A DNA stretch of 64,000 bases from Candidatus Forterrea multitransposorum CG_2015-17_Forterrea_25_41 (GTDB taxonomy: Archaea; Iainarchaeota; Iainarchaeia; Iainarchaeales; CSSED10-239): positions 544,001-608,000 of the forward strand of contig CP045477.1 in the NCBI GenBank assembly GCA_009392915.1, given 5' to 3'. Below the pieces are notes generated by a model. It had not been told where the DNA came from and ran no database searches. It worked only from the letters and a program-made list of their open reading frames with translations. Numbering within the stretch: position 1 is the first letter of the stretch; each line of letters starts with the position of its first letter. The translations under genes were made by a program, and so were the position numbers. Positions 6,439-55,323 of this stretch are shown piece by piece.

Positions 6439-7047
6439 TTATTTATAAAGTTTTATTCCTTCCAAAAGATCTATTCCAATAGATTTTTTTACTGCAATTT
6501 CCCTTATATATGAAACTATAGATTTATCTAAACAATCCCAATATCCAAATTTATCTATTAAATAAGCAATTAATTGAAAATACATATATTCAAATCTATA
6601 ATCTTCCTCATAATATAATGGGAAATGAATAAAATTATTTCTTTGATTTCCAATTAAATTAAATAAACTTTCGATTAATTCTTTATTTGAATCTTTATTA
6701 TTAATAATATATGAAAATAACTTAAATTTTAATTTACCTAAAGTTCTATTTTTAATTGGTATTTGTAAATAATTTATTGGATCTTTATCAATTAATATTA
6801 TTTTAACTAATCCTTCAACACAAATATTTAACAAAATAATATGAGAAATTTCCTCTGTAGTAGAATCTTCTTTTAATTTTTTATAATTATTTAACAAAAA
6901 TTTAAATTGCTTAAATAAATTAGCTATAAATTTTTGTTTTTTTTCATCTACATCAACTTTATCTAATAATTTACATTCCATAATTAAAGAGAGTTTTTGT
7001 AACTCTTTTAAACGATTATTTAATTCTTTAACCATAATTTCACACAT
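6439..7047 (-). CDS. Hypothetical protein with a HEPN-like Rx4H motif
   Basis: 202 aa, helical. GNQRNNFIHFPLY contains R-x4-H. Nothing else is recognisable. Confidence 0.35.
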   Translation of the reverse strand: MCEIMVKELNNRLKELQKLSLIMECKLLDKVDVDEKKQKFIANLFKQFKFLLNNYKKLKEDSTTEEISHIILLNICVEGLVKIILIDKDPINYLQIPIKNRTLGKLKFKLFSYIINNKDSNKELIESLFNLIGNQRNNFIHFPLYYEEDYRFEYMYFQLIAYLIDKFGYWDCLDKSIVSYIREIAVKKSIGIDLLEGIKLYK

Positions 7048-7945: not shown

Positions 7946-8515
7946 TTATCTTTTTTTAAAATTTCTTTTTCTTGAATGATTAAATTTAGAATTCTTATTA
8001 AAGCGACTAGATAAATTAGAAGGCTGTCTTTTAAAAGATCTAAATTTATTTACTTTTCTCTTTAAATAATGTGTAATTGTATAATATTTAATAAAATTTA
8101 AAATAATTATTGCAATTAAAATATAAATTAATAATTCTAAAATTAAAGAAAATAATGAAAAATCACTTAAATTAAGTATTATTTTTACAAATAAACCAAT
8201 AATAGGAATTAATAATAAACTAATATAAATTTCAATTAAAAAAAATCTATTTTTCGAATCTAATAAATACAGTCCACGTAACAGATTTTTGATAAAACTA
8301 ATAATTGTTTTAATAATTACAATAAATATAACTATTAAAGAAATAGAAAAATAAATTGTTTTTTTTATTTCACTAAGATTTGAAGATTTTATTAAAATAT
8401 TAATTAAAATAAAAAAAATCAATGTTGAGCAATAATATAAAAGGTTATTTTTATTTTCATTCCAAAAACGATGCCAAATATCTTTATGTAAAAAACTTTT
8501 ATGTTTTTTAATCAT
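7946..8515 (-). CDS. Polytopic membrane protein with a basic C-terminal tail (hypothetical)
   Basis: Four or five hydrophobic helices, then an R/K-rich tail. Confidence 0.35.
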   Translation of the reverse strand: MIKKHKSFLHKDIWHRFWNENKNNLLYYCSTLIFFILINILIKSSNLSEIKKTIYFSISLIVIFIVIIKTIISFIKNLLRGLYLLDSKNRFFLIEIYISLLLIPIIGLFVKIILNLSDFSLFSLILELLIYILIAIIILNFIKYYTITHYLKRKVNKFRSFKRQPSNLSSRFNKNSKFNHSRKRNFKKR

Positions 8516-9919: not shown

Positions 9920-10441
9920 ATGGATAAAAAGACAGACAAATTATTATATAATATTGTAATATTTTTACTAATTTTTGCATTAGTAATAAGTATTGTATTT
10001 ACTTTTGAAAGATTATTTTTAGAAAAACCAATTAATGAGTGTAATAATGTTTATCAAAAAAACTACATGAATGATAAATGTGAATATGATCAAGAAAATG
10101 TTGATACTTGTTATGCAAAAGAAGGAACAGTAATTTATAAAAGTGATTGTTCTATTGAGTGTGATTATTGTTATAAAGAATATAATAATAAATTAGAAAA
10201 TTATAATAATAATGCAAATCTTTTAAGAATAATATTATCATTTATTATAGCATTATCTTTGACATTAATAAATATTAAAGATAAAATAATTAAATATGCT
10301 TTACTTTCAGGAAGTTTAGTTTCATTATTTGTTGCAACATTAATGGCAATGAAGTTTATTGGAAGTTTACTTCCAATTGTAATTATTCTTGAATTTATTT
10401 TAGTACTTATAATTTATAAAAAAACAAAAGAGGAGAAATAA
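9920..10441 (+). CDS. Membrane-anchored Cys-rich protein (hypothetical)
   Basis: N- and C-terminal TM helices flank a Cys-rich extracytoplasmic segment (CxYDQENVDTCY...CSIECDYCY). Confidence 0.35.
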   Translation: MDKKTDKLLYNIVIFLLIFALVISIVFTFERLFLEKPINECNNVYQKNYMNDKCEYDQENVDTCYAKEGTVIYKSDCSIECDYCYKEYNNKLENYNNNANLLRIILSFIIALSLTLINIKDKIIKYALLSGSLVSLFVATLMAMKFIGSLLPIVIILEFILVLIIYKKTKEEK

Positions 10442-11402: not shown

Positions 11403-12779
11403 ATGCTACAAATATTTTATATAGATATCTTAAAAAAAAGAATAATTATGGAAAATATAATAGATAGAGTAAAACCTTTAAATAACTTTAAAGAAATAAA
11501 AGATAAACAAGAGATTGTTTACTGGATGACAAGAGAACAAAGAGTTGAAGATAACTACTCTCTTTTATTTGCAGACTATCTTTCAAAAAAACATAACTGT
11601 AAACTAAAAGTAATATTTACTTTAGTAGAAAAGTTTCTAGAATCACAAGAAAAACAATTTATCTTTATGCTTGAAGGTTTAAAAGAAGTTGAAGAAAAGC
11701 TTAATAACCTAGGAATTGAATTTATTATTTTAAAAGGAAAAGAACCTTTTAAAGAAATAACAAATTATATTAATAAAAATAAAATATCTGCACTAGTTAC
11801 AGATTTAGATCCATTAAAAATAAAGGTTAAATGGAGAGAAGAAGTATTAAAAGAAATAAAAATACCTTTTTTTATGGTAGATTCACATAATATAGTGCCT
11901 ATTGAAATTGCATCTAAAAAACAAGAGTATGCAGCATATACTCTAAGACCAAAAATTAATCATTTACTTGGAAGTTATTTAAAAGAAATTCCAAAGATTA
12001 AAAAAAGAGAACAAAAAACAGATTATAAAAATGATTTTAAAAAATTAATTAAAGAAAAACAAGATTATTCTTTTATTTCTGGAGAAAAAGCTTCTAGAAA
12101 AATATTAAAAGACTTTATTGAAAATAAACTTAACGATTATTCAACATTAAGAAACGATCCTTCAAGAAACTTTCAATCAAATCTTTCACCTTATCTTCAT
12201 TTTGGACAAATTTCTTCACAAAGAATAGCTTTAGAAGTTTTAAAATCAGAAAAAAACGAAGAAAGTAAGAAAGCTTTTTTAGAAGAACTAATTGTTAGAA
12301 AAGAATTGTCTGATAATTATTGTTATTATAACAAAGATTATGATAACTATAATGGTTTTCCTGATTGGGCAAAAAGAACTATAGAAGAACATAAGGATGA
12401 TAAAAGAGAATATCTCTATTCACTTAAAGAACTACAAGACTCTAAAACACATGACATCTTATGGAATTCATGTCAAAAAGAAATGGTATTGACAGGTAAA
12501 ATGCATGGTTACCTAAGAATGTATTGGGCAAAAAAGATTTTAGAATGGACAAAAGATATTAAAGAAGCTCAAGAATTTGCAATATTTTTAAATGATAAAT
12601 ATAGTTTAGATGGAAGAGATGCTAATGGATATACAGGGATTGCTTGGTCTCTTGGCGGGGTACATGATAGAGCATGGAATGAAAGAAGTATTTTTGGAAA
12701 AATAAGATTTATGAGTTTTAATTCAACTTCTAAAAAATTTAATCTTAAAGGATATTTAGAAAAAATAGAAAAAATATAG
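11403..12779 (+). CDS. phr: Class II CPD photolyase (deoxyribodipyrimidine photo-lyase)
   Basis: VYWMTREQRVEDNYSLLFA matches the class II N-terminus. The C-terminal FAD-binding region is MHGYLRMYWAKKILEW...GRDANGYTGIAWSLGGVHDRAWNERSIFGKIRFMS. The likely real start is the internal Met at 11448 (MENIIDRVK). Confidence 0.85.
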   Translation: MLQIFYIDILKKRIIMENIIDRVKPLNNFKEIKDKQEIVYWMTREQRVEDNYSLLFADYLSKKHNCKLKVIFTLVEKFLESQEKQFIFMLEGLKEVEEKLNNLGIEFIILKGKEPFKEITNYINKNKISALVTDLDPLKIKVKWREEVLKEIKIPFFMVDSHNIVPIEIASKKQEYAAYTLRPKINHLLGSYLKEIPKIKKREQKTDYKNDFKKLIKEKQDYSFISGEKASRKILKDFIENKLNDYSTLRNDPSRNFQSNLSPYLHFGQISSQRIALEVLKSEKNEESKKAFLEELIVRKELSDNYCYYNKDYDNYNGFPDWAKRTIEEHKDDKREYLYSLKELQDSKTHDILWNSCQKEMVLTGKMHGYLRMYWAKKILEWTKDIKEAQEFAIFLNDKYSLDGRDANGYTGIAWSLGGVHDRAWNERSIFGKIRFMSFNSTSKKFNLKGYLEKIEKI

Positions 12780-13544: not shown

Positions 13545-14675
13545 TTATATTTTATGAGTATATACTTTATTAATATAATTATAGATTATTTTTGATTTAG
13601 AAGAATCTATTCCTTGTATTTTTGAAATATCAGATAAATTTAAACTTTTAATAGTTTTTAATGAATTTTGAGAATTAATTAAACTATTAATAGTTTTTTC
13701 ATCTATTTCTGTTATTTTAGAAAAAAATCTATAACCTCTAGGGAAATCAAATTCTTTTTGAGAAGTAAAATTTGAAAGTTCTAAGATATCTATTAACTTT
13801 TCTGTATCTGCAATTTTTCTAATACCTAGTTGTTTTAGAAAATTTATTTTTTCTAAACATTCTTCTTTTAGATATATATTGTTAGAATAATCTTTTAAAA
13901 TTAAATATAATTCTTCTTCAAGACCATATGTAATTTCATAAAAAGAATTAGAAATATCTTGACCTTGAGAACCAAGCTCTACTATTAAATCATCAACTTG
14001 AGTTTCATTTTTGAAAAAATATAAAATATTCTGTATTAAATCTAAAACTTCTGTTTTTAGATTATTTGATAAAATAATTTCTAAATCATATAAATTTTTA
14101 ATTTTTTTATCAATCTTTGATCTAAAATCTTTTAAATTGTTAATTGCATAACTTGCTTTTACCATTAAAATATTAAAATCTTGTAAAACATATTTTTGAT
14201 CTTTATAATAAAGAGAAATAACATTTCTTCTATGTGAAATTGCAATAACAGGTAAATCAGATTGCATTGCTGTTTGTTCAGCTGATCGATGTCTCATTCC
14301 TGTCTCTTTTGAAGAAATATCTCTATCTGGCATTAAATGTTTATTTGCACCTACAATCTTTGTTAAATCATTTGAAAGAACTATAGCTCCATCCATTTTT
14401 GAAAGTTCAAAAAGCTTTTGAGAAGAAAAAGGAATATCTAAATCAATTCCTCCTTTTAAAATAGGTTTTAACTTATCTGAATCACCTAAAACTATTAAAG
14501 CACCTAAGTTACCATGTAAAATTTCATCCAAACCACTCCTTAATTCTGTTCCAGGAGTTACAAGAGGGAGTATTTTAGTAATATCAATAACATCATTTTC
14601 ATGTATTTGACTGATTAATTTTGATTGAAAATCTTCTTCTTGAATAAAAACTTTTTTTTTTGGTCTTGTAGGCAT
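13545..14675 (-). CDS. DisA/DacZ-like diadenylate cyclase (c-di-AMP synthase, DAC domain)
   Basis: DAC motifs GALIVLGD, DGAIVLS, KHLMPDRD...ETGMRHRSAEQTA...LPVIAISHRRNVISLYY. The RHR motif and ISLYY closely match DisA-type DAC domains. Confidence 0.7.
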   Translation of the reverse strand: MPTRPKKKVFIQEEDFQSKLISQIHENDVIDITKILPLVTPGTELRSGLDEILHGNLGALIVLGDSDKLKPILKGGIDLDIPFSSQKLFELSKMDGAIVLSNDLTKIVGANKHLMPDRDISSKETGMRHRSAEQTAMQSDLPVIAISHRRNVISLYYKDQKYVLQDFNILMVKASYAINNLKDFRSKIDKKIKNLYDLEIILSNNLKTEVLDLIQNILYFFKNETQVDDLIVELGSQGQDISNSFYEITYGLEEELYLILKDYSNNIYLKEECLEKINFLKQLGIRKIADTEKLIDILELSNFTSQKEFDFPRGYRFFSKITEIDEKTINSLINSQNSLKTIKSLNLSDISKIQGIDSSKSKIIYNYINKVYTHKI

Positions 14676-15905: not shown

Positions 15906-16175
15906 CTATTTTTTAAAAACTTTCATACATGGAATAATTGCAAAAAATACAAATAATATTAGATAAGCATACCATTCAAGAGAAAGGATATTAGGACATA
16001 ATTTTGCAAGCATTAATGTAAAAAATAAAACACTTAATTTTATTAAAGCAATGTCTGTCCATTTCATATTTTTTATTTTTTTATTTAATATTTTAAAACA
16101 CATAAAAACACCTCTTTTTATAATTAAAGATACAGATAATGTATTTTTAAATATATTTAAAATAAGAAATCTCAT
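15906..16175 (-). CDS. Small membrane protein (hypothetical)
   Basis: 89 aa with two or three TM helices. Confidence 0.3.
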   Translation of the reverse strand: MRFLILNIFKNTLSVSLIIKRGVFMCFKILNKKIKNMKWTDIALIKLSVLFFTLMLAKLCPNILSLEWYAYLILFVFFAIIPCMKVFKK

Positions 16176-16816
16176 TAAAAATGAGATTTCTCTTTAGATA
16201 AAATATAATCTAATCTTATTTTATTAGCTTCTTGAACATATTTTTTGTAATTTTGATCAGGCATTCTACTATGACTAAAACCACAAGTATAACATTCTTT
16301 TTTATGACCTGTTAAAACATCTTTGTTTTTAACTAATGCTTTTTCCCAATCTTTTGCAAAAGAATCATTTAAAATATTCCCTATAATTGTGTTAATTGTC
16401 CAACAAGTATAAACTTCACCTTTTGGAGAAATTAAAAGATCTTTACAATAACTATAACAAGGGACTATAATTTTTTCTTTTTTAAAATATTTTTTAATTA
16501 ACTCAATTCTTTCCTTACTTGTAATCTCTATATTATATTTGTTCGCAAGAGAAACTACTTTATCTATAGATGAAAGATCAATATTGAACTTATAGTTAGA
16601 ATTATTTCCAACACCATATATTTGAACAGGATCAAAGTCTATGAAAACTCCACCTAGTTCTTTAGATAACTCGACAATACTTTCAAGAGTAGAAATATTT
16701 TCATTTAAGATTGTACAATCAATCTCTATGTTTGGATGTTTATCTTTACTAATTATTTTTTTTAAACCCTCTACTGCTGAATTAAAAATTCCTGGGTAAA
16801 TTTCTGATTTTATCAT
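16175..16816 (-). CDS. Radical SAM enzyme, C-terminal segment with Cys-rich SPASM/twitch-like motifs
   Basis: IVPCYSYC...CW...ECYTCGF cysteine clusters. It overlaps the upstream rSAM ORF by 35 nt in another frame, and SPASM domains are normally fused to the rSAM core. Confidence 0.45.
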   Translation of the reverse strand: MIKSEIYPGIFNSAVEGLKKIISKDKHPNIEIDCTILNENISTLESIVELSKELGGVFIDFDPVQIYGVGNNSNYKFNIDLSSIDKVVSLANKYNIEITSKERIELIKKYFKKEKIIVPCYSYCKDLLISPKGEVYTCWTINTIIGNILNDSFAKDWEKALVKNKDVLTGHKKECYTCGFSHSRMPDQNYKKYVQEANKIRLDYILSKEKSHF

Positions 16817-17216
16817 GAATCTCAGGAAATCCAGAATCTATTGAAACAACAAGATTATCTACAAAATTAGAAACAACATCTACATGGTTGTTTAAAAGAG
16901 AACCATTTGTAATAATTTGTACCTTTAAATTTTTATTTTTTGCATGTATTATTAAATCATCAATATTTGGATGAAGCAATGGCTCTCCTCCCCATAAAGT
17001 TACCCATTTAAAATTAAGATCAGATAATTTATTTATTATTGAAAGAAGAGTTTCTTTTTCACCCATATAAGGATTTTTCCATATATTACACATAACACAT
17101 TTAGCATTACATGCAAAATTTACCTGCAGATAAGCATCTGTAGGAATTGAATTATTTTTTGCATTTTCAACATATAATTTCATTTTATCATATTTACTAC
17201 TTTCATTCATTTGCAT
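16782..17216 (-). CDS. Radical SAM enzyme, N-terminal core segment (probably one gene with 16175..16816, frameshifted)
   Basis: CxxxCxxC cluster FACNAKCVMCNIW and a glycine-rich SAM motif WGGEPLL. Confidence 0.55.
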   Translation of the reverse strand: MQMNESSKYDKMKLYVENAKNNSIPTDAYLQVNFACNAKCVMCNIWKNPYMGEKETLLSIINKLSDLNFKWVTLWGGEPLLHPNIDDLIIHAKNKNLKVQIITNGSLLNNHVDVVSNFVDNLVVSIDSGFPEIHDKIRNLPRNF

Positions 17217-18361: not shown

Positions 18362-18928
18362 CTAATAATCATGCCCTGGGCAAAGAATCTCTATATCTAA
18401 ATCTTTTAACTTGTTTAAAGAAGAAGACATTTCTTTTGGTGAAGAAAAAGGAAGATCCATTCTTCCTATGTTATCTCTAAAGAAAAGAGTATCTCCAGAA
18501 AAAAGAATTTTTCTTTTTTTATCATATATACAAATTGAGCCTTTAGAGTGACCGGGTGTATCTATTACCTCTAAATAATCTGGAAGAGATAAAGAAGAAA
18601 TATCTTTTACATCAATATTAAATTTATCTGCGAGAGGTTTAAGTAAAATTGCTTTATATTTATCTTCTTCTAAAGAATCAACTGAATCCTTAGAAGCATA
18701 AAAAGAAGCATTTGTAAAAAGATGAAAGTTTCCTACATGATCATAGTGCATGTGTGTGAAGATAACTGTTTTAACTTCTTCTAAAGGAATTATTTTTGAT
18801 AAATCTTGTTTTATCATAAGCTCATCTGTAGGATAACCTGTATCAATCAAGAGGTTTTCTTCCTTTAAAAAATAAAGATTAGATTCTCCTGTAATTTTAA
18901 AAACATCTTTATAAATTTCTTCAATCAT
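18362..18928 (-). CDS. MBL-fold metallo-hydrolase
   Basis: THMHYDHVGN (HxHxDH), with downstream His/Asp ligands (PGHS, GD). Confidence 0.75.
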   Translation of the reverse strand: MIEEIYKDVFKITGESNLYFLKEENLLIDTGYPTDELMIKQDLSKIIPLEEVKTVIFTHMHYDHVGNFHLFTNASFYASKDSVDSLEEDKYKAILLKPLADKFNIDVKDISSLSLPDYLEVIDTPGHSKGSICIYDKKRKILFSGDTLFFRDNIGRMDLPFSSPKEMSSSLNKLKDLDIEILCPGHDY

Positions 18929-18992
18929 AAAAATTCATTTTTAAGTGTCCAACAAACATAGTTTTTAATATTAAAAAACCTTTTTCTAAAAA

Positions 18993-19088
18993 ATGGCTAC
19001 TACCTTTGGGGGTGAAGCACCTTTCCTAAAGGAGCTCTCTTGCGCGTGAACAAGAGCAAACATTGGGTGCGAACTGACCGAAACCAGT
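18993..19088. ncRNA. GC-rich multi-hairpin element, candidate structured small RNA of unknown class
   Basis: It is the only intergenic GC-rich island apart from the tRNAs. Four perfect local hairpins are present: GGTG-AAG-CACC, CCTTT-CCT-AAAGG, CTCTTG-CGCGTGAA-CAAGAG and GAACTG-ACCGAAAC-CAGTTC. It is not tRNA-like (no T-loop, no cloverleaf) and the strand is undetermined. Confidence 0.3.
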
Positions 19089-20783
19089 TCAGTGGGTAAA
19101 CCAAAAGTTATAAACCTTCTTCCCTTCCTTTTCCTCAATAGAATCAAGTCTTGCAAAACAGAATCTCTCAAACTGTATTATATCCCCAACAGATATTTGC
19201 TCAATTGTCTTTTCTGCCTTTGCATTTATCAATTCATGCTCAGGAGTAAAGATTGTAACATCTATTAATTGAGAAGGATCTTTTGGAAGGAAATGTATTA
19301 TTTTTTTATTTTCATTCTCTTCATTCTTAAAAGATAAATAATCCTCAGAATCAAAAACAAAAGAACCATCCTTTACTCTAAAATTAATATTATCCATAAG
19401 TCTTACAAGGTTTCCTTCCTTAAAAGAATCAAAATCTTCATTCTCTATTAAATAAACACCATTTGAAGTGAAATTTCTTTGTCCAAGATTTAATGAAGGA
19501 TGTAGAGATAAAGAATATTCTTTACAAACATCATTTTCAACAGTAATCTCAACAGGGTTTTTAATTGCAAAAAATCTTTTTGCAGAATCATTTAAAACTT
19601 TTTTATTATACTTAATTAAAGTATCCCAAGTTAAAACAGAACCTGCAGACTTTGTAATACCGGACTCAACAACCATTTGTTTTATTGCCTCAGGAGTAAA
19701 ACCTCTTCTCTTAAGTGCACGAAGAGTTGGAAGTGAAGGGTCATCCCAACCTATAAGCTCACCAGAGTTAACTTTTTCTCTAATAGCTCTTCCTGAAGAT
19801 AACATTCCTTCTAAGTTCATTCTTGAAAATTCATAAGTAACAGTATTATGTAAACCTAAAATTTTTCTAATATACTGATGAAGCTCACTTGCCATCTCAA
19901 ACTCAACAGTTCTTAACCTATGAGTAATATTAAAATAACCATCTAAAACAGCATTTTGAAAATCATAAGCAGGATAATTTCTATGCTTATAACCTATTCT
20001 TGGATGTTCACAATCAATTATTCTAAAGATTGTAGGATCTCTCATTCTTGAATTTTTATGTTTTAAATCTATTTTTAGTCTTAAGGAAGCTTTTCCTTCC
20101 TCGTAACCGTCCATTTCCTTCCACTTGATTAAGTTTTCTTGAGGAGAGACTTTTCTACAATTACAAGGAGTTGAAGTTTCTCTATTTTTACTCATCTCTT
20201 CAGGTGTACAGAAACAAACATATGCTTGAGATTTTAAGATTAATTTTTCTGCCATTTCTTTCATCATATCTATATAGTCTGATGCAAAAACAAGCTCGTC
20301 CCATTCAATACCAAGCCATTTAAAATCATCTTGAGAAATTTCATAGAATTCAGATCTTACAAGACGAGGGTTTGTGTCTTCAAACCTTAATTGAAATTTT
20401 CCAGAATATTTTTTTGCTAAAAGATAATTAAGTAAAACTGCTTTAGCGTGGCCTATGTGAAAATATTTTTCTGGGCCTGGTGGAAATGCAGATTTTACAA
20501 CATCGCCTTCTTTAATGTTTAAAAATGCAAAAATATTTCTTTCTTCTTTTTCTTTCTTTTCAAAAAAGCTAGGATTTATTTCTTTTAACATCTCTTGCTG
20601 TTTTTCAAGAGAAAGAGAATTAATTTCTTCAATTAAAGGAATAAGCTCAAGAGAAAGTTCTTTTGTTTTTTGTCTGTATTCAGGAAAGTCTTTAAGGATA
20701 GCTCCTAAGATATACTTAATTTCAGCTTTACCTTTATACTTTACAGCATTTTCTAAAATAATTTTTTTAAAAGTTTCTTGCAT
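19089..20783 (-). CDS. gltX: Glutamyl-tRNA synthetase, archaeal type
   Basis: HIGH motif (FHIGHAKAVLLNY), class I catalytic core, and an archaeal/eukaryal-type C-terminal anticodon-binding domain. 564 aa. Confidence 0.9.
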   Translation of the reverse strand: MQETFKKIILENAVKYKGKAEIKYILGAILKDFPEYRQKTKELSLELIPLIEEINSLSLEKQQEMLKEINPSFFEKKEKEERNIFAFLNIKEGDVVKSAFPPGPEKYFHIGHAKAVLLNYLLAKKYSGKFQLRFEDTNPRLVRSEFYEISQDDFKWLGIEWDELVFASDYIDMMKEMAEKLILKSQAYVCFCTPEEMSKNRETSTPCNCRKVSPQENLIKWKEMDGYEEGKASLRLKIDLKHKNSRMRDPTIFRIIDCEHPRIGYKHRNYPAYDFQNAVLDGYFNITHRLRTVEFEMASELHQYIRKILGLHNTVTYEFSRMNLEGMLSSGRAIREKVNSGELIGWDDPSLPTLRALKRRGFTPEAIKQMVVESGITKSAGSVLTWDTLIKYNKKVLNDSAKRFFAIKNPVEITVENDVCKEYSLSLHPSLNLGQRNFTSNGVYLIENEDFDSFKEGNLVRLMDNINFRVKDGSFVFDSEDYLSFKNEENENKKIIHFLPKDPSQLIDVTIFTPEHELINAKAEKTIEQISVGDIIQFERFCFARLDSIEEKEGKKVYNFWFTH

Positions 20784-20785
20784 AT

Positions 20786-21064
20786 TTAATCATAATTATT
20801 TTTATAAACATTATCTCTATGTTCAAAATATCTAAACAAAATTTTATTTTCTTTTTTTAAATATCTAAAAATTAAAACAAATTTCTGAGTAATGTGAACT
20901 CTTTTAAAAATTTGTAATGGTTTTTTTAAATTTTTATAATGTTCAACATCACTACAATTCTTAATTTCATCAACCTTATTAAGTACTTGAGCATACAACA
21001 CAGGATCTTTTTTAGAAATTTTTATTAAATCCTTTAATAATTCTTTATGAAATTCAAAGTCCAT
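20786..21064 (-). CDS. RelE/ParE-family type II toxin
   Basis: 92 aa. ...LKKPLQIFKRVHITQKFVLIFRYLKKENKILFRYFEHRDNVYK resembles the RelE/YoeB C-terminal core. It sits immediately downstream of a small RHH ORF. Confidence 0.5.
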   Translation of the reverse strand: MDFEFHKELLKDLIKISKKDPVLYAQVLNKVDEIKNCSDVEHYKNLKKPLQIFKRVHITQKFVLIFRYLKKENKILFRYFEHRDNVYKNNYD

Positions 21065-21316
21065 TTATTTTCCTTTAATATAATTATCTAAATCATCTAC
21101 AGAATTAAATTTTTTATAGTTAGAAGATTTATCTTTTTTATTATCAGATAAAACTTTTTTTATAAAGTCTGGTCTTAATTCTGGTTCTAGTTCTAAATCT
21201 GCATAATATTTTACAACTACAGAAATAGCTTCTACTTTATTTTTTAAATTATTCTTTGCTTTTATAATATTTAAGGTTTGATTTATATCTATTGGTAAGT
21301 CTAATAATGCTTTCAT
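21065..21316 (-). CDS. Putative RHH-type antitoxin
   Basis: 83 aa. The N-terminus ALLDLPIDINQTLNIIKAKNNLKNKVEAISVVVKYY fits a strand-helix-helix pattern. It abuts the toxin gene with no gap. Confidence 0.4.
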   Translation of the reverse strand: MKALLDLPIDINQTLNIIKAKNNLKNKVEAISVVVKYYADLELEPELRPDFIKKVLSDNKKDKSSNYKKFNSVDDLDNYIKGK

Positions 21317-53814: not shown

Positions 53815-55323
53815 CTAAAGATCCTTAAAATTAATCTTTTCAAAATAAAGATCAAATAATATTTTGGATAAATTAGAAACATTAACTCTCTTTTGATCAA
53901 AAGAATCTCTATCTCTAATAGTTACGGTATTATCTTCTTTTGTTTGATGATCAATTGTTATACAGTAATTACAACCAATTTCATCTAAACGAGCATATCT
54001 TTTACCAATAGAACCTTTTTCATCAAAAAAGACTTCAAAAACACCATAATTTTTGTCCAAGATATCTTTCAAAACATCTTGTCCAATCTCTAAAATACCA
54101 TCTTTTTTAACTAAAGGTAAAATTGCACAAAAATAAGGAGATATTTTTGGTTTTAAATGAAGAATATTTCTTAACTCTTCACCTTCTTTTTTAACTTCAA
54201 AAGAATTTTCTAAAAGAACATAGAAAAGTCTATCAAGACCTATTGAAGAAACTTCTAAAACATGAGGATTAATTACCTTACCTTCTTCTTTAACTGACAA
54301 ATCTTTTTTAGAACCTTCACTATGTGCTTTTAAATCATGATCTGTTCTATAGTTAAAAGAGAATAACTCTATCCAGCCTAAAGAAGAATTAACCTCTAAA
54401 TCAAAAGTTTGTTTTGAATAGAAGGCTCTATCATTATCAGGAACTTCTCTAAATCTTAAGTTTTCATGAGTTATACCAATATCATCTAAAAATTTTTGTT
54501 TTAAATATAAATAAAAAGTTAAAAGATTACCTAAAGAAATTTTATTTTCAGTAATTTCTTTTACAGTATAATCTTTTTCAACACCATCTTTTAAAAGTAA
54601 AAATCTTATTTTATAATCTTGAATATTTGATAAATCATAATCATTTATTTTATCAGGATCAAAGAACATTTCAGTCTCAAGTTGTTCAAATTCTCTACAT
54701 CTTATAAGACCTTGTCTTGGAGAAATTTCATTTCTGTAAACTTTTCCATGTTGTGAAAGAGTTATTGGAAGAGTATTTCTTGAAGATTTATATATTCTTG
54801 AAAAATCTAAAAATATAGATTGACAAGATTCTCCTCTCAAGTATCCTTTGTTACCATCCTGTACACCTACATTTATATAAGCCATAAGATTAAATCTTTT
54901 AATATTTATTAAATCACCACCATCTTCTGACTTAATACTATTATCTGTAATTAATTTTTGATATTCTTCAATTGAGAGACCTTCTGGTATTTCAAGGTTT
55001 AATTTTTCAGAAAGATATTTATCAAGTTTATAAGATTTTCCTGTTTTAGAGCATGTTGCAATTGGATCATCAAAGTTTTTAAGATGACCTGAAGCTTGAA
55101 AAACAGGTTCTGGTAAAATAATTGAACCAGAGATTTCTAAAAAGTTATTTCTATTTACAAATTCTTTTCTCCAGAAATCAATAATCTTTAATCTTATTTT
55201 GTTTCCTAAAGGACCATACTCATAAAAACCAGCAAAGTTTTTAGAATATATTTCAGCTGAAGGAAAATAAAATGATCTTGTAGATATCATTTCGTTAAAT
55301 CTATCTATTTTTAAATTATCCAT
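53815..55323 (-). CDS. glyS: Glycyl-tRNA synthetase (archaeal/eukaryal alpha2 type)
   Basis: N-terminal FYFPSAEIYSKNFAGFYEYGPLG, class II motifs, and a C-terminal anticodon-binding domain. 502 aa. Confidence 0.85.
   Translation of the reverse strand: MDNLKIDRFNEMISTRSFYFPSAEIYSKNFAGFYEYGPLGNKIRLKIIDFWRKEFVNRNNFLEISGSIILPEPVFQASGHLKNFDDPIATCSKTGKSYKLDKYLSEKLNLEIPEGLSIEEYQKLITDNSIKSEDGGDLINIKRFNLMAYINVGVQDGNKGYLRGESCQSIFLDFSRIYKSSRNTLPITLSQHGKVYRNEISPRQGLIRCREFEQLETEMFFDPDKINDYDLSNIQDYKIRFLLLKDGVEKDYTVKEITENKISLGNLLTFYLYLKQKFLDDIGITHENLRFREVPDNDRAFYSKQTFDLEVNSSLGWIELFSFNYRTDHDLKAHSEGSKKDLSVKEEGKVINPHVLEVSSIGLDRLFYVLLENSFEVKKEGEELRNILHLKPKISPYFCAILPLVKKDGILEIGQDVLKDILDKNYGVFEVFFDEKGSIGKRYARLDEIGCNYCITIDHQTKEDNTVTIRDRDSFDQKRVNVSNLSKILFDLYFEKINFKDL

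Follow-up and report, generated by a model that had tools for sequence, protein, structure and literature searches.

What is a GC-rich, hairpin-forming segment doing directly behind the glutamyl-tRNA synthetase gene (gltX) of an AT-rich archaeal genome? The segment lies in a 64-kb stretch of the genome of Candidatus Forterrea multitransposorum (hereafter the window; coordinates are positions within it unless a locus label is given, and its minus strand is the gltX strand). An initial annotation, made from the letters alone, had described it as four hairpins in a row abutting the gltX stop codon and as a candidate small structured RNA. We find that the element is a short, fast-changing tandem array of ~34-nt hairpin units, not a conserved small RNA gene. 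One of its units, as judged by covariance-model homology, is a member of a family of hairpins found in tRNA introns of other archaeal phyla, a kinship that the initial annotation had missed along with the tandem arrangement itself.

Composition and units of the gltX array

The best 80-nt window over the element has a GC content of 53.8%, ~4.7 standard deviations above the mean of the whole 64 kb (23.2%, standard deviation 6.5%), and among 80-nt windows only the three tRNA genes reach comparable values. The change at the border is steep, from 19% GC in 18900-18999 to 51% in the 100 nt of 19000-19099, so the GC-rich segment that drew attention to this locus is real. All four inverted repeats named in the initial annotation are also present at the places given for them (Table 1), but GGTG/CACC is nested inside CCTTT/AAAGG, so that the repeats amount to three stem-loops rather than four. 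Neither does the element simply abut the gltX stop codon, as the arm of GAACTG/CAGTTC overlaps the TGA by 2 nt. The 61-aa open reading frame (ORF) across the element (18986..19171) had been dismissed as spurious, and rightly so: it overlaps gltX in another frame, and the 34-nt repeat period is not a multiple of three. The description of a structured, GC-rich, non-coding segment therefore holds.

Table 1. Positions of the element, its parts and the adjoining genes within the window.
Feature	Position	Strand	Description and basis
Inverted repeat CCTTT/AAAGG	19003-07 / 19028-32		sequence
Inverted repeat GGTG/CACC	19011-14 / 19018-21		sequence
Inverted repeat CTCTTG/CAAGAG	19037-42 / 19051-56		sequence
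Inverted repeat GAACTG/CAGTTC	19071-76 / 19085-90		sequence
Unit X	19057..19091	minus	stem GAACUG(19090-19085)/CAGUUC(19076-19071), 8-nt loop, then GCACCCAAUG; begins inside the stop codon; sequence and fold
Unit A	19035..19056	minus	stem CUCUUG(19056-19051)/CAAGAG(19042-19037), loop UUCACGCG; sequence
Unit B	18996..19040, core 19036-19003	minus	two-tier hairpin: outer stem CCUUU(19032-28)/AAAGG(19007-03) with AAA bulge, inner stem GGUG(19021-18)/CACC(19014-11) with loop CUU; covariance model R2
T6 run (U6 in gltX-strand RNA)	18988..18993	minus	9 nt beyond unit B; sequence
Palindrome TTTTTAATATTAAAAA	18962..18977	none	perfect 16-bp, TATA-like, between the hairpin array and the MBL-fold gene; inverted-repeat search
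gltX stop codon	19091-19089	minus	TGA
gltX	19089..20783	minus	archaeal-type glutamyl-tRNA synthetase, 564 aa; ORF list, Pfam and source name
Metallo-beta-lactamase (MBL)-fold gene	18362..18928	minus	188 aa, downstream of gltX; Pfam Lactamase_B, 92 bits; context, outside the element

Read on the gltX strand, the order is stop codon, X, A, B, UAGUAGCCA and U6. Sequence comparison suggests that A and X are paralogues of B. Spacings from one TTCAC to the next are 23 and 34 nt, the TTCAC motifs of A and B lying 34 nt apart; unit A falls in the 34-nt register of the repeats of a related locus (L005) in a MAFFT alignment; and the stems of A (CUCUU/AAGAG) and B (CCUUU/AAAGG) differ by two compensated swaps. 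Unit A would then be a shortened paralogue of B, with a period of 23 nt. Unit X of L005 is a full unit with B-type ends (CCUUUAGAAG...CACCCAAUGG).

We compared the DNA around GltX homologues of decreasing identity to that of the window (labels such as L003 or L013 denote DNA fetched around GltX homologues or motif matches). At 96% GltX identity, L003 carries X-A-B with a few substitutions; L010 (88%) has X-A-X-A'-B', partly decayed to AT; L106 (87%) keeps X and B, both decayed; and L005 (85%) has 5.4 near-identical 34-nt B-type units followed by X. Nothing follows the stop codon in L011 (82%) or L006 (76%), and L012 (81%) retains a remnant only. Farther away, L109 (73%) has TGA, a well-kept B and then a decayed X, L008 (70%) has X only, displaced, and L108 (65%) lacks an array, its MBL-fold gene beginning 12 nt after the stop with a GGAG motif in the gap. 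In L088, for which GltX identity was not measured, a TAG is followed directly by B alone and then by a window-like tail and a T run. Unit X adjoins the stop codon in L003, L010 and L008 (there in the displaced copy) and comes behind the B units in L005 and L109. L003 also has unit A, which L010 and L012 show in decayed form. Arrays, where they occur, are succeeded by a T run and a palindromic TATA-like sequence (18962-18977 in the window).

Since the number, order and sequence of the units differ between close relatives, there is no conserved multi-hairpin RNA at this site, and the discrete, conserved four-hairpin small RNA (sRNA) of the initial annotation is not supported: a lack of conserved structure in relatives, which that annotation had named as a refutation, is largely what we see for the element as a whole. 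Unit B itself gives a less uniform picture. The window copy matches that of L109 at 30 of 34 positions (88%), against 76% identity of the gltX DNA, and also matches the L003 copy at 30 of 34, where 4/34 changes compare with 13% at third codon positions; in L003 unit B evolves at about the synonymous rate.

Two further repeats were seen at these loci. A perfect tandem repeat of 4.7 copies of a 15-nt unit, TATTTCCTTTATAGC, lies near a contig end in L005 (13533-13602), and in L010 (3590-3660) the palindrome GTGTTCGATACTATCGAACAC occurs twice, ~200 nt ahead of genes for a 185-aa protein and AbiEii, and probably forms an operator pair.

Kinship with tRNA-intron hairpins in other archaea

The element belongs to no RNA family that we could recognise. 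Scanning the window against Rfam 15 at the gathering score returned three tRNAs only and nothing over the element, and at E<=10 just three chance-level fragments of 12-17 bits appeared, with nothing credible in 18900-19200. This was the scan that the initial annotation had proposed after failing to match the element by eye to 5S, signal recognition particle or RNase P RNA, and the two agree. The element is not a tRNA either, as had been stated: ARAGORN calls none in default mode or with introns of up to 120-150 nt allowed, settings that do recover intron-bearing tRNAs in L013, L021, L035 and others; the Rfam tRNA model (RF00005) is negative at E<=10 over 18900-19200; and manual parsing of both strands, together with these searches, found no tRNA, no split or permuted tRNA and no 5S.

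Archaeal C/D box sRNA genes lie in tRNA introns and overlap or abut the 3' ends of protein genes (for Pyrobaculum, see PMC6009581), the same classes of location as those of the unit B family described below. In the element, however, inspection by eye showed neither a C (RUGAUGA) nor a C' box, nor a K-turn or K-loop. UGAUGA is absent from both strands of 18986-19094 (read by eye, without a pattern search), the only minus-strand CUGA spans the stop codon, and Rfam gives no C/D match. A C/D or H/ACA guide, one of several options initially offered, is accordingly not borne out; of those options, a cis structure at the 3' end of gltX is the best fit.

Relatives of unit B came from two large scans, of species-representative genomes with AAAGNNGCTTCACCCNNAAAGG and of a metagenome collection with a related pattern. 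Both needed near-exact patterns, so the spread and variability of the family are underestimated. The AAAGNNGCTTCACCCNNAAAGG scan returned 30 loci, by our estimate roughly the number expected by chance and mostly scattered matches in bacterial coding sequence; the bacterial matches of the two scans were set aside as coding sequences (e.g., a MerR-type gene) or scattered chance. In L013 (a DHVE2-group archaeon) and in L021 and L035 (uncultured archaea), the motif lies with matching flanks inside tRNA genes, and the metagenome scan added further copies in tRNA introns. ARAGORN in intron mode calls an intron-bearing tRNA at all motif-carrying tRNA loci, and in L013, L058, L072 and L103 Rfam likewise identifies a tRNA across the hairpin; at related loci it leaves the hairpins unmatched except by the enclosing tRNAs. 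By our own parsing the host tRNAs are Ile(GAU), a CAU tRNA, Asp(GUC), Cys(GCA) and one read as Arg(GCG) or Pro(CGG). In the minimum free energy (MFE) fold of the L013 tRNA-Ile anticodon arm and intron, a helix, a 3-nt bulge, a 4-bp helix, a second 3-nt bulge and a helix follow one another, and the family hairpin is the distal helix of this bulge-helix-bulge intron. Diverged copies also lie beyond the 3' ends of two of the intron-bearing tRNAs, in their trailers, and L043, an unrelated archaeal contig of 61% GC, has three tandem units right after the TAG stop of a DUF763 gene.

The family consensus of ~34-45 nt (models R1 and R2) reads AGCCCC-UUUGG-AAAA-GGUG-CUU-CACC-C-CCAAA-GGG. Covariance model R2, built only from copies outside Iainarchaeota, matches the window at 18996-19040 on the minus strand with 41.8 bits (E 3.4e-11); this is its sole significant match in the 64 kb, the next-best (17 bits, at 54008) lying in coding sequence. 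Among the relatives it scores 48.7 bits in L088, 48.0 in L109, 41.5 in L005 and 26.9 in L003. The intron hairpin of the DHVE2 tRNA-Ile is identical to window B at 31 of 34 positions, closer than the copy of L003 (30/34).

Two observations concern unusual tRNA loci of this set. The 73-76-nt intron at L067 1380-1470 (also in L045 and L060) contains a partial sense copy of the unit (AAGAAGGCTTCACCCAAGAAA) and then a full antisense copy, so that GCUUCACCC and GGGUGAAGC can pair together. In L035 (~6480-6570, minus strand) a second copy of the tRNA-Asp 3' half (T arm and acceptor) stands just after the intron-bearing tRNA-Asp, its T loop interrupted by ~56 nt with the hairpins CUUCACC/GGUGAAG and GGUUCAGC/GCUGAACC. 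ARAGORN does not call this interrupted copy, which might represent a non-canonical intron, a fragment of a split tRNA or the scar of an integration.

The unit is absent from IMG/VR (pattern scans) and from phage and plasmid collections (BLAST), as it is from Rfam, and we have dismissed a viral or plasmid origin. A full-text literature search found no match to the motif string, and nothing relevant on Aciduliprofundum or Iainarchaeota tRNA introns or on archaeal tRNA introns with repetitive elements or hairpins. The closest described phenomenon, as far as the available part of PMC4090602 goes, is the similarity of introns among Thermoproteales tRNAs, where related introns are shared by different tRNA genes and spoken of as "tRNA intron transposition" (Fujishima et al. 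2010, in PMC4090602). The likeness extends to a single intron family occupying several tRNAs (Ile-GAU, CAU, Asp-GUC, Cys-GCA, Arg/Pro) at position 37/38 with a bulge-helix-bulge, and window B is a sequence homologue of the part common to those introns. Unlike them, the window copy lies outside a tRNA, without bulge-helix-bulge flanks and in a tandem array at the 3' flank of an mRNA, and the B family spans several phyla rather than one order. Extragenic, tandem copies of tRNA-intron sequence are not mentioned in that part of the source.

On this evidence, the ~34-nt unit may be a previously undescribed mobile hairpin module of archaea that crosses phyla (Iainarchaeota, DHVE2/Thermoplasmatota-like and others), a possibility that we raise with considerable doubt. 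Such a module would land in tRNA anticodon loops and become the distal helix of a spliceable intron, and would land in tRNA trailers and after stop codons and amplify there into tandem arrays. The window copy should not itself be spliced, since it lacks bulge-helix-bulge flanks: by MFE folding and inspection, the contexts of the window and L088 give the hairpin alone, its flanks unpaired (the search did not cover relaxed motifs exhaustively). A bulge-helix-loop substrate of the splicing endonuclease was also rejected, because on the sense strand the AAA bulge flanks the 4-bp helix on the side opposite to that required; the right geometry, found only antisense, was judged numerology.

A different route from introns to this site would be the loss of an intron-containing tRNA gene once present downstream of gltX, of which the intron hairpin and scraps survive. 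The preference of B for tRNA introns outside Iainarchaeota would fit such a remnant, as would the tail ...GUAGCCA before the T run, which loosely resembles an acceptor 3' end. We nevertheless consider it highly improbable: the Rfam and ARAGORN searches above give no exon-like signal on either side, there is no T-arm, X and A look like paralogues of B and not like exons, and none of the relatives examined has a tRNA downstream of gltX.

Candidate roles of the array

Bacterial repetitive extragenic palindromic (REP) elements and the bacterial interspersed mosaic elements (BIMEs) built from them are GC-rich imperfect palindromes of ~35 nt that lie just after stop codons, often in tandem and in copy numbers that vary between strains. 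They are transcribed into the 3' untranslated region and can protect mRNA from 3' exonucleases. The window element is alike in consisting of imperfect GC-rich palindromes just 3' of a stop codon, in tandem and in variable copy number. It differs in its archaeal host, in the lack of a known RAYT-type transposase and in the presence of the B unit inside tRNA introns as well. A REP-like array forming the structured 3' end of the gltX transcript is the reading that we favour, at slightly less than even confidence. The degenerate array of three related ~34-nt GC-rich units between the stop codon and T6 would be copied into the gltX mRNA as its 3' untranslated region and fold into three independent stem-loops just upstream of an oligo-U termination site, where it may act as bacterial REP/BIME sequences do, by resisting 3'-to-5' decay and/or defining the 3' end. 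The anatomy of the array, its homology, its changing copy number and the absence of a tRNA or known RNA family are shown directly, whereas transcription, strand and any stabilising or terminating effect are inferred. The array would also separate gltX from the MBL-fold gene, apparently co-transcribed with gltX in relatives without an array, and its units would derive from the horizontally distributed module that in other archaea supplies tRNA introns with their distal helix, occurs in the 3' trailers of tRNAs and builds tandem arrays behind other genes.

The gltX strand is suggested by the orientation of most family members, which are sense to their tRNA when read in the direction of the window minus strand, and by four independent stem substitutions that keep pairing only as G-U on that strand: GGUG/UGCC in unit B of L003, GGUG/CAUC in L043, UGG/CCG in units 4 and 5 of L005, and GAAUUG/CAGUUC in unit X of L109. 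Archaeal transcription terminates at oligo-T, and in six of the eight relatives no more than 12 nt separate the array end from the start of a run of at least five T, against a background of 0.126, although these lineages are not all independent. The T6 run of the window is probably the oligo-U terminator of the gltX transcript.

Several observations weigh against a structured 3' end. The folding energy of the element does not clearly surpass that of dinucleotide shuffles (plus-strand z -1.37; minus-strand z between -0.79 and -1.25), so the hairpins alone are not beyond chance for GC-rich sequence; what is beyond chance is the GC island and the homology to other loci. Nor does the B family testify to its fold, with 74% of cells paired, no compensatory pairs and shuffles doing equally well, the sequences recovered by near-exact patterns being too similar for covariation to show. 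The terminator scan does not call B terminator-like, because the T6 run starts 9 nt after the B stem where the criterion is a T run 0-2 nt after the stem, and hairpins are not known to be required for termination in archaea. The array has decayed to AT or is missing in the close lineages L106, L012, L011 and L006, so any benefit would be dispensable. Pattern, BLAST and covariance-model searches find a single locus in the 64-kb window, and an exact pattern finds only the gltX locus in the genome of the L005 species, unlike the hundreds of dispersed copies of REP families. Finally, the unit is antisense to the tRNA in the Arg/Pro tRNA intron (L045/L060/L067), which argues that the conserved entity is a DNA palindrome and not a strand-specific RNA.

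In the main rival reading, units of the same origin have no host function and are selfish or neutral palindromic DNA, mobile or minisatellite-like, that grows, shrinks and decays through slippage and unequal recombination and persists only where it is harmless (spliced tRNA introns, trailers, gene 3' flanks). We regard it as possible, if rather doubtful. It would account for the copy number and order that vary between close relatives and for the lineages that decay to AT, for both orientations inside tRNA introns, and for the placement of all known sites in removed or untranslated RNA; it also fits the sporadic occurrence in distant archaeal lineages, with only four species matched among GTDB representatives and a DHVE2 copy so close to that of the window. 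Harder to reconcile with passenger DNA are a GC content that stays near 50% in an extremely AT-biased genome, the oligo-T run after the array in most lineages, the single locus per genome seen in Iainarchaeota, with no sign of ongoing spread, and the lack of an associated transposase or recombinase. The divergence of unit B points both ways: its identity to L109 exceeds that of gltX, it changes at about the synonymous rate in L003, and it has decayed in L106. The evidence on function versus passenger is mixed.

Alternatively, the array could be a stand-alone functional small RNA or a protein-binding platform in which the hairpins, above all the invariant GCUUCACCC of unit B, interact with a conserved factor or base-pair with a target and tandem copies multiply the sites. 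The loop-region sequence of B hardly varies between phyla, in contrast to its presumed pairing partner (GGUG, GCGG, AGAGG), and in the tRNA-Asp introns of three organisms the hairpin is conserved to about the same degree as the exons; a TATA-like TTTATAA also lies ~25 nt upstream of the element, in the last gltX codons, a weak signal in a genome of 77% AT. With no Rfam match, an architecture that relatives do not conserve, an element dispensable in close lineages, no candidate partner identified, and an antisense copy in one tRNA intron that would present the complementary loop, we think a platform or free-standing RNA unlikely.

Other roles suggested by position were rejected. A selenocysteine insertion sequence (SECIS) or stop-codon recoding hairpin was considered because a hairpin directly follows UGA/UAG, but no read-through frame is conserved, a 34-nt period is not divisible by three, the B unit also lies in tRNA introns and Rfam has no SECIS match. 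A mimic of the tRNA-Glu anticodon arm for GluRS autoregulation is ruled out by the B units that follow the DUF763 gene and lie in Ile, Asp, Cys and Arg tRNA introns. Archaeal origin-recognition boxes, integron attC sites and CRISPR are misfits in sequence and architecture.

The gltX 3' end may have a history of its own as an insertion site. Two extra copies of the final 30-82 nt of gltX stand downstream in L008 (three in all, at 11576-11695, 12553-12582 and 13950-14031). The repeats bracket a polyprenyl-synthase gene and an AAA_14/DUF4143 ATPase gene, with unit X immediately after the last copy; in L006 a 55-nt repeat of the gltX 3' end (8455-8509 and 10025-10079) lies behind an AAA_14 gene insertion. 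We saw no integrase gene within these inserts. The pattern looks like site-specific integration into the gltX 3' end, which would appear to be an insertion site for small gene cassettes; this would explain the variable downstream genes and would make some absences of the array really displacements. One could go further and take the hairpins, notably X with its 6-bp arms and 8-bp spacer, as part of such an attachment site, given where X stands in L008. However, the duplicated segment is the coding end of gltX, with the hairpins outside it; L006 has the insertion and no hairpin; the window has the hairpins and neither insertion nor duplicate; and the inserts lack a visible integrase. A DNA recombination site is thus very unlikely, and a direct role of unit X in the L008 and L006 events is possible but unsupported.

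The 5.4 copies of a 34-nt unit in L005, with a T run and a same-strand gene behind them, recall the RNA antitoxins of type III toxin-antitoxin systems (ToxIN), whose repeats of ~34-36 nt are processed by an endoribonuclease toxin encoded downstream; ToxI comprises 5.5 repeats of 36 nt, and the arrays share head-to-tail repeats of that length in 2-6 copies before a terminator. There the likeness ends. The downstream gene encodes an MBL fold (Lactamase_B) and is present also in relatives without repeats, PADLOC finds no ToxN-, CptN- or TenpN-like protein nearby, the window units have diverged from one another, and the B unit occurs singly in tRNA introns. With the toxin gene absent nearby (PADLOC, Pfam), this reading is effectively ruled out and its probability is negligible. 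The MBL-fold protein does have weak PADLOC matches to LmuA (E 4e-6) and Avs1a (2e-4) over residues 18-85, which probably reflect the shared metallo-beta-lactamase fold only.

Surroundings of the array and its significance

The assignment of gltX in the initial annotation is secure, resting on Pfam tRNA-synt_1c and tRNA-synt_1c_C and on the source name "glutamate--tRNA ligase". An identical GltX protein is present in GCA_009993835.1, and a relative with 85% identity comes from a metagenome-assembled genome of Candidatus Iainarchaeum, a DPANN archaeon. The palindrome TTTTTAATATTAAAAA is probably the promoter of the downstream MBL-fold gene, and its symmetric TATA-like sequence could possibly drive transcription both ways, including antisense across the array. 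The 5' flank of gltX is variable too (window 20786-21316, minus strand, and the equivalent site in L005, L011, L106, L108 and L109): the window and its closest relatives encode an 83-aa DUF2683 protein and a 92-aa protein there, and other relatives a nucleotidyltransferase/HEPN pair instead, both of which look like two-gene modules of the toxin-antitoxin type. Farther downstream (16175-17216, minus strand) a radical-SAM gene appears split into two ORFs of 144 and 213 aa that overlap by 35 nt, identically so in another assembly of the same lineage (L001 13568-14609); this may reflect a frameshifted pseudogene, programmed frameshifting or a pair of genuine genes.

For annotation, the locus is a warning that a GC-rich island need not be an RNA gene when the genome is that of an AT-rich DPANN archaeon. 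For the biology of archaeal mRNA, the natural gltX variants with zero to six hairpins are a ready-made experiment on what 3' stem-loops do in 3'-end formation and stability. The wider interest lies in the distribution of one hairpin sequence, which occurs, in one orientation or the other, in canonical introns of no fewer than five different tRNAs, in tRNA trailers and in arrays behind two unrelated protein genes, at sites that span several distinct archaeal lineages and at least two phyla. On how archaea gain tRNA introns, the only comparative evidence cited in the available part of PMC4090602 is the resemblance of Thermoproteales introns to each other. If the unit is indeed mobile, the gltX array would be an extragenic copy of tRNA-intron sequence and so direct material for testing intron gain, and the unit would serve as a tractable marker both for that process and for gene flow between DPANN and other archaea.

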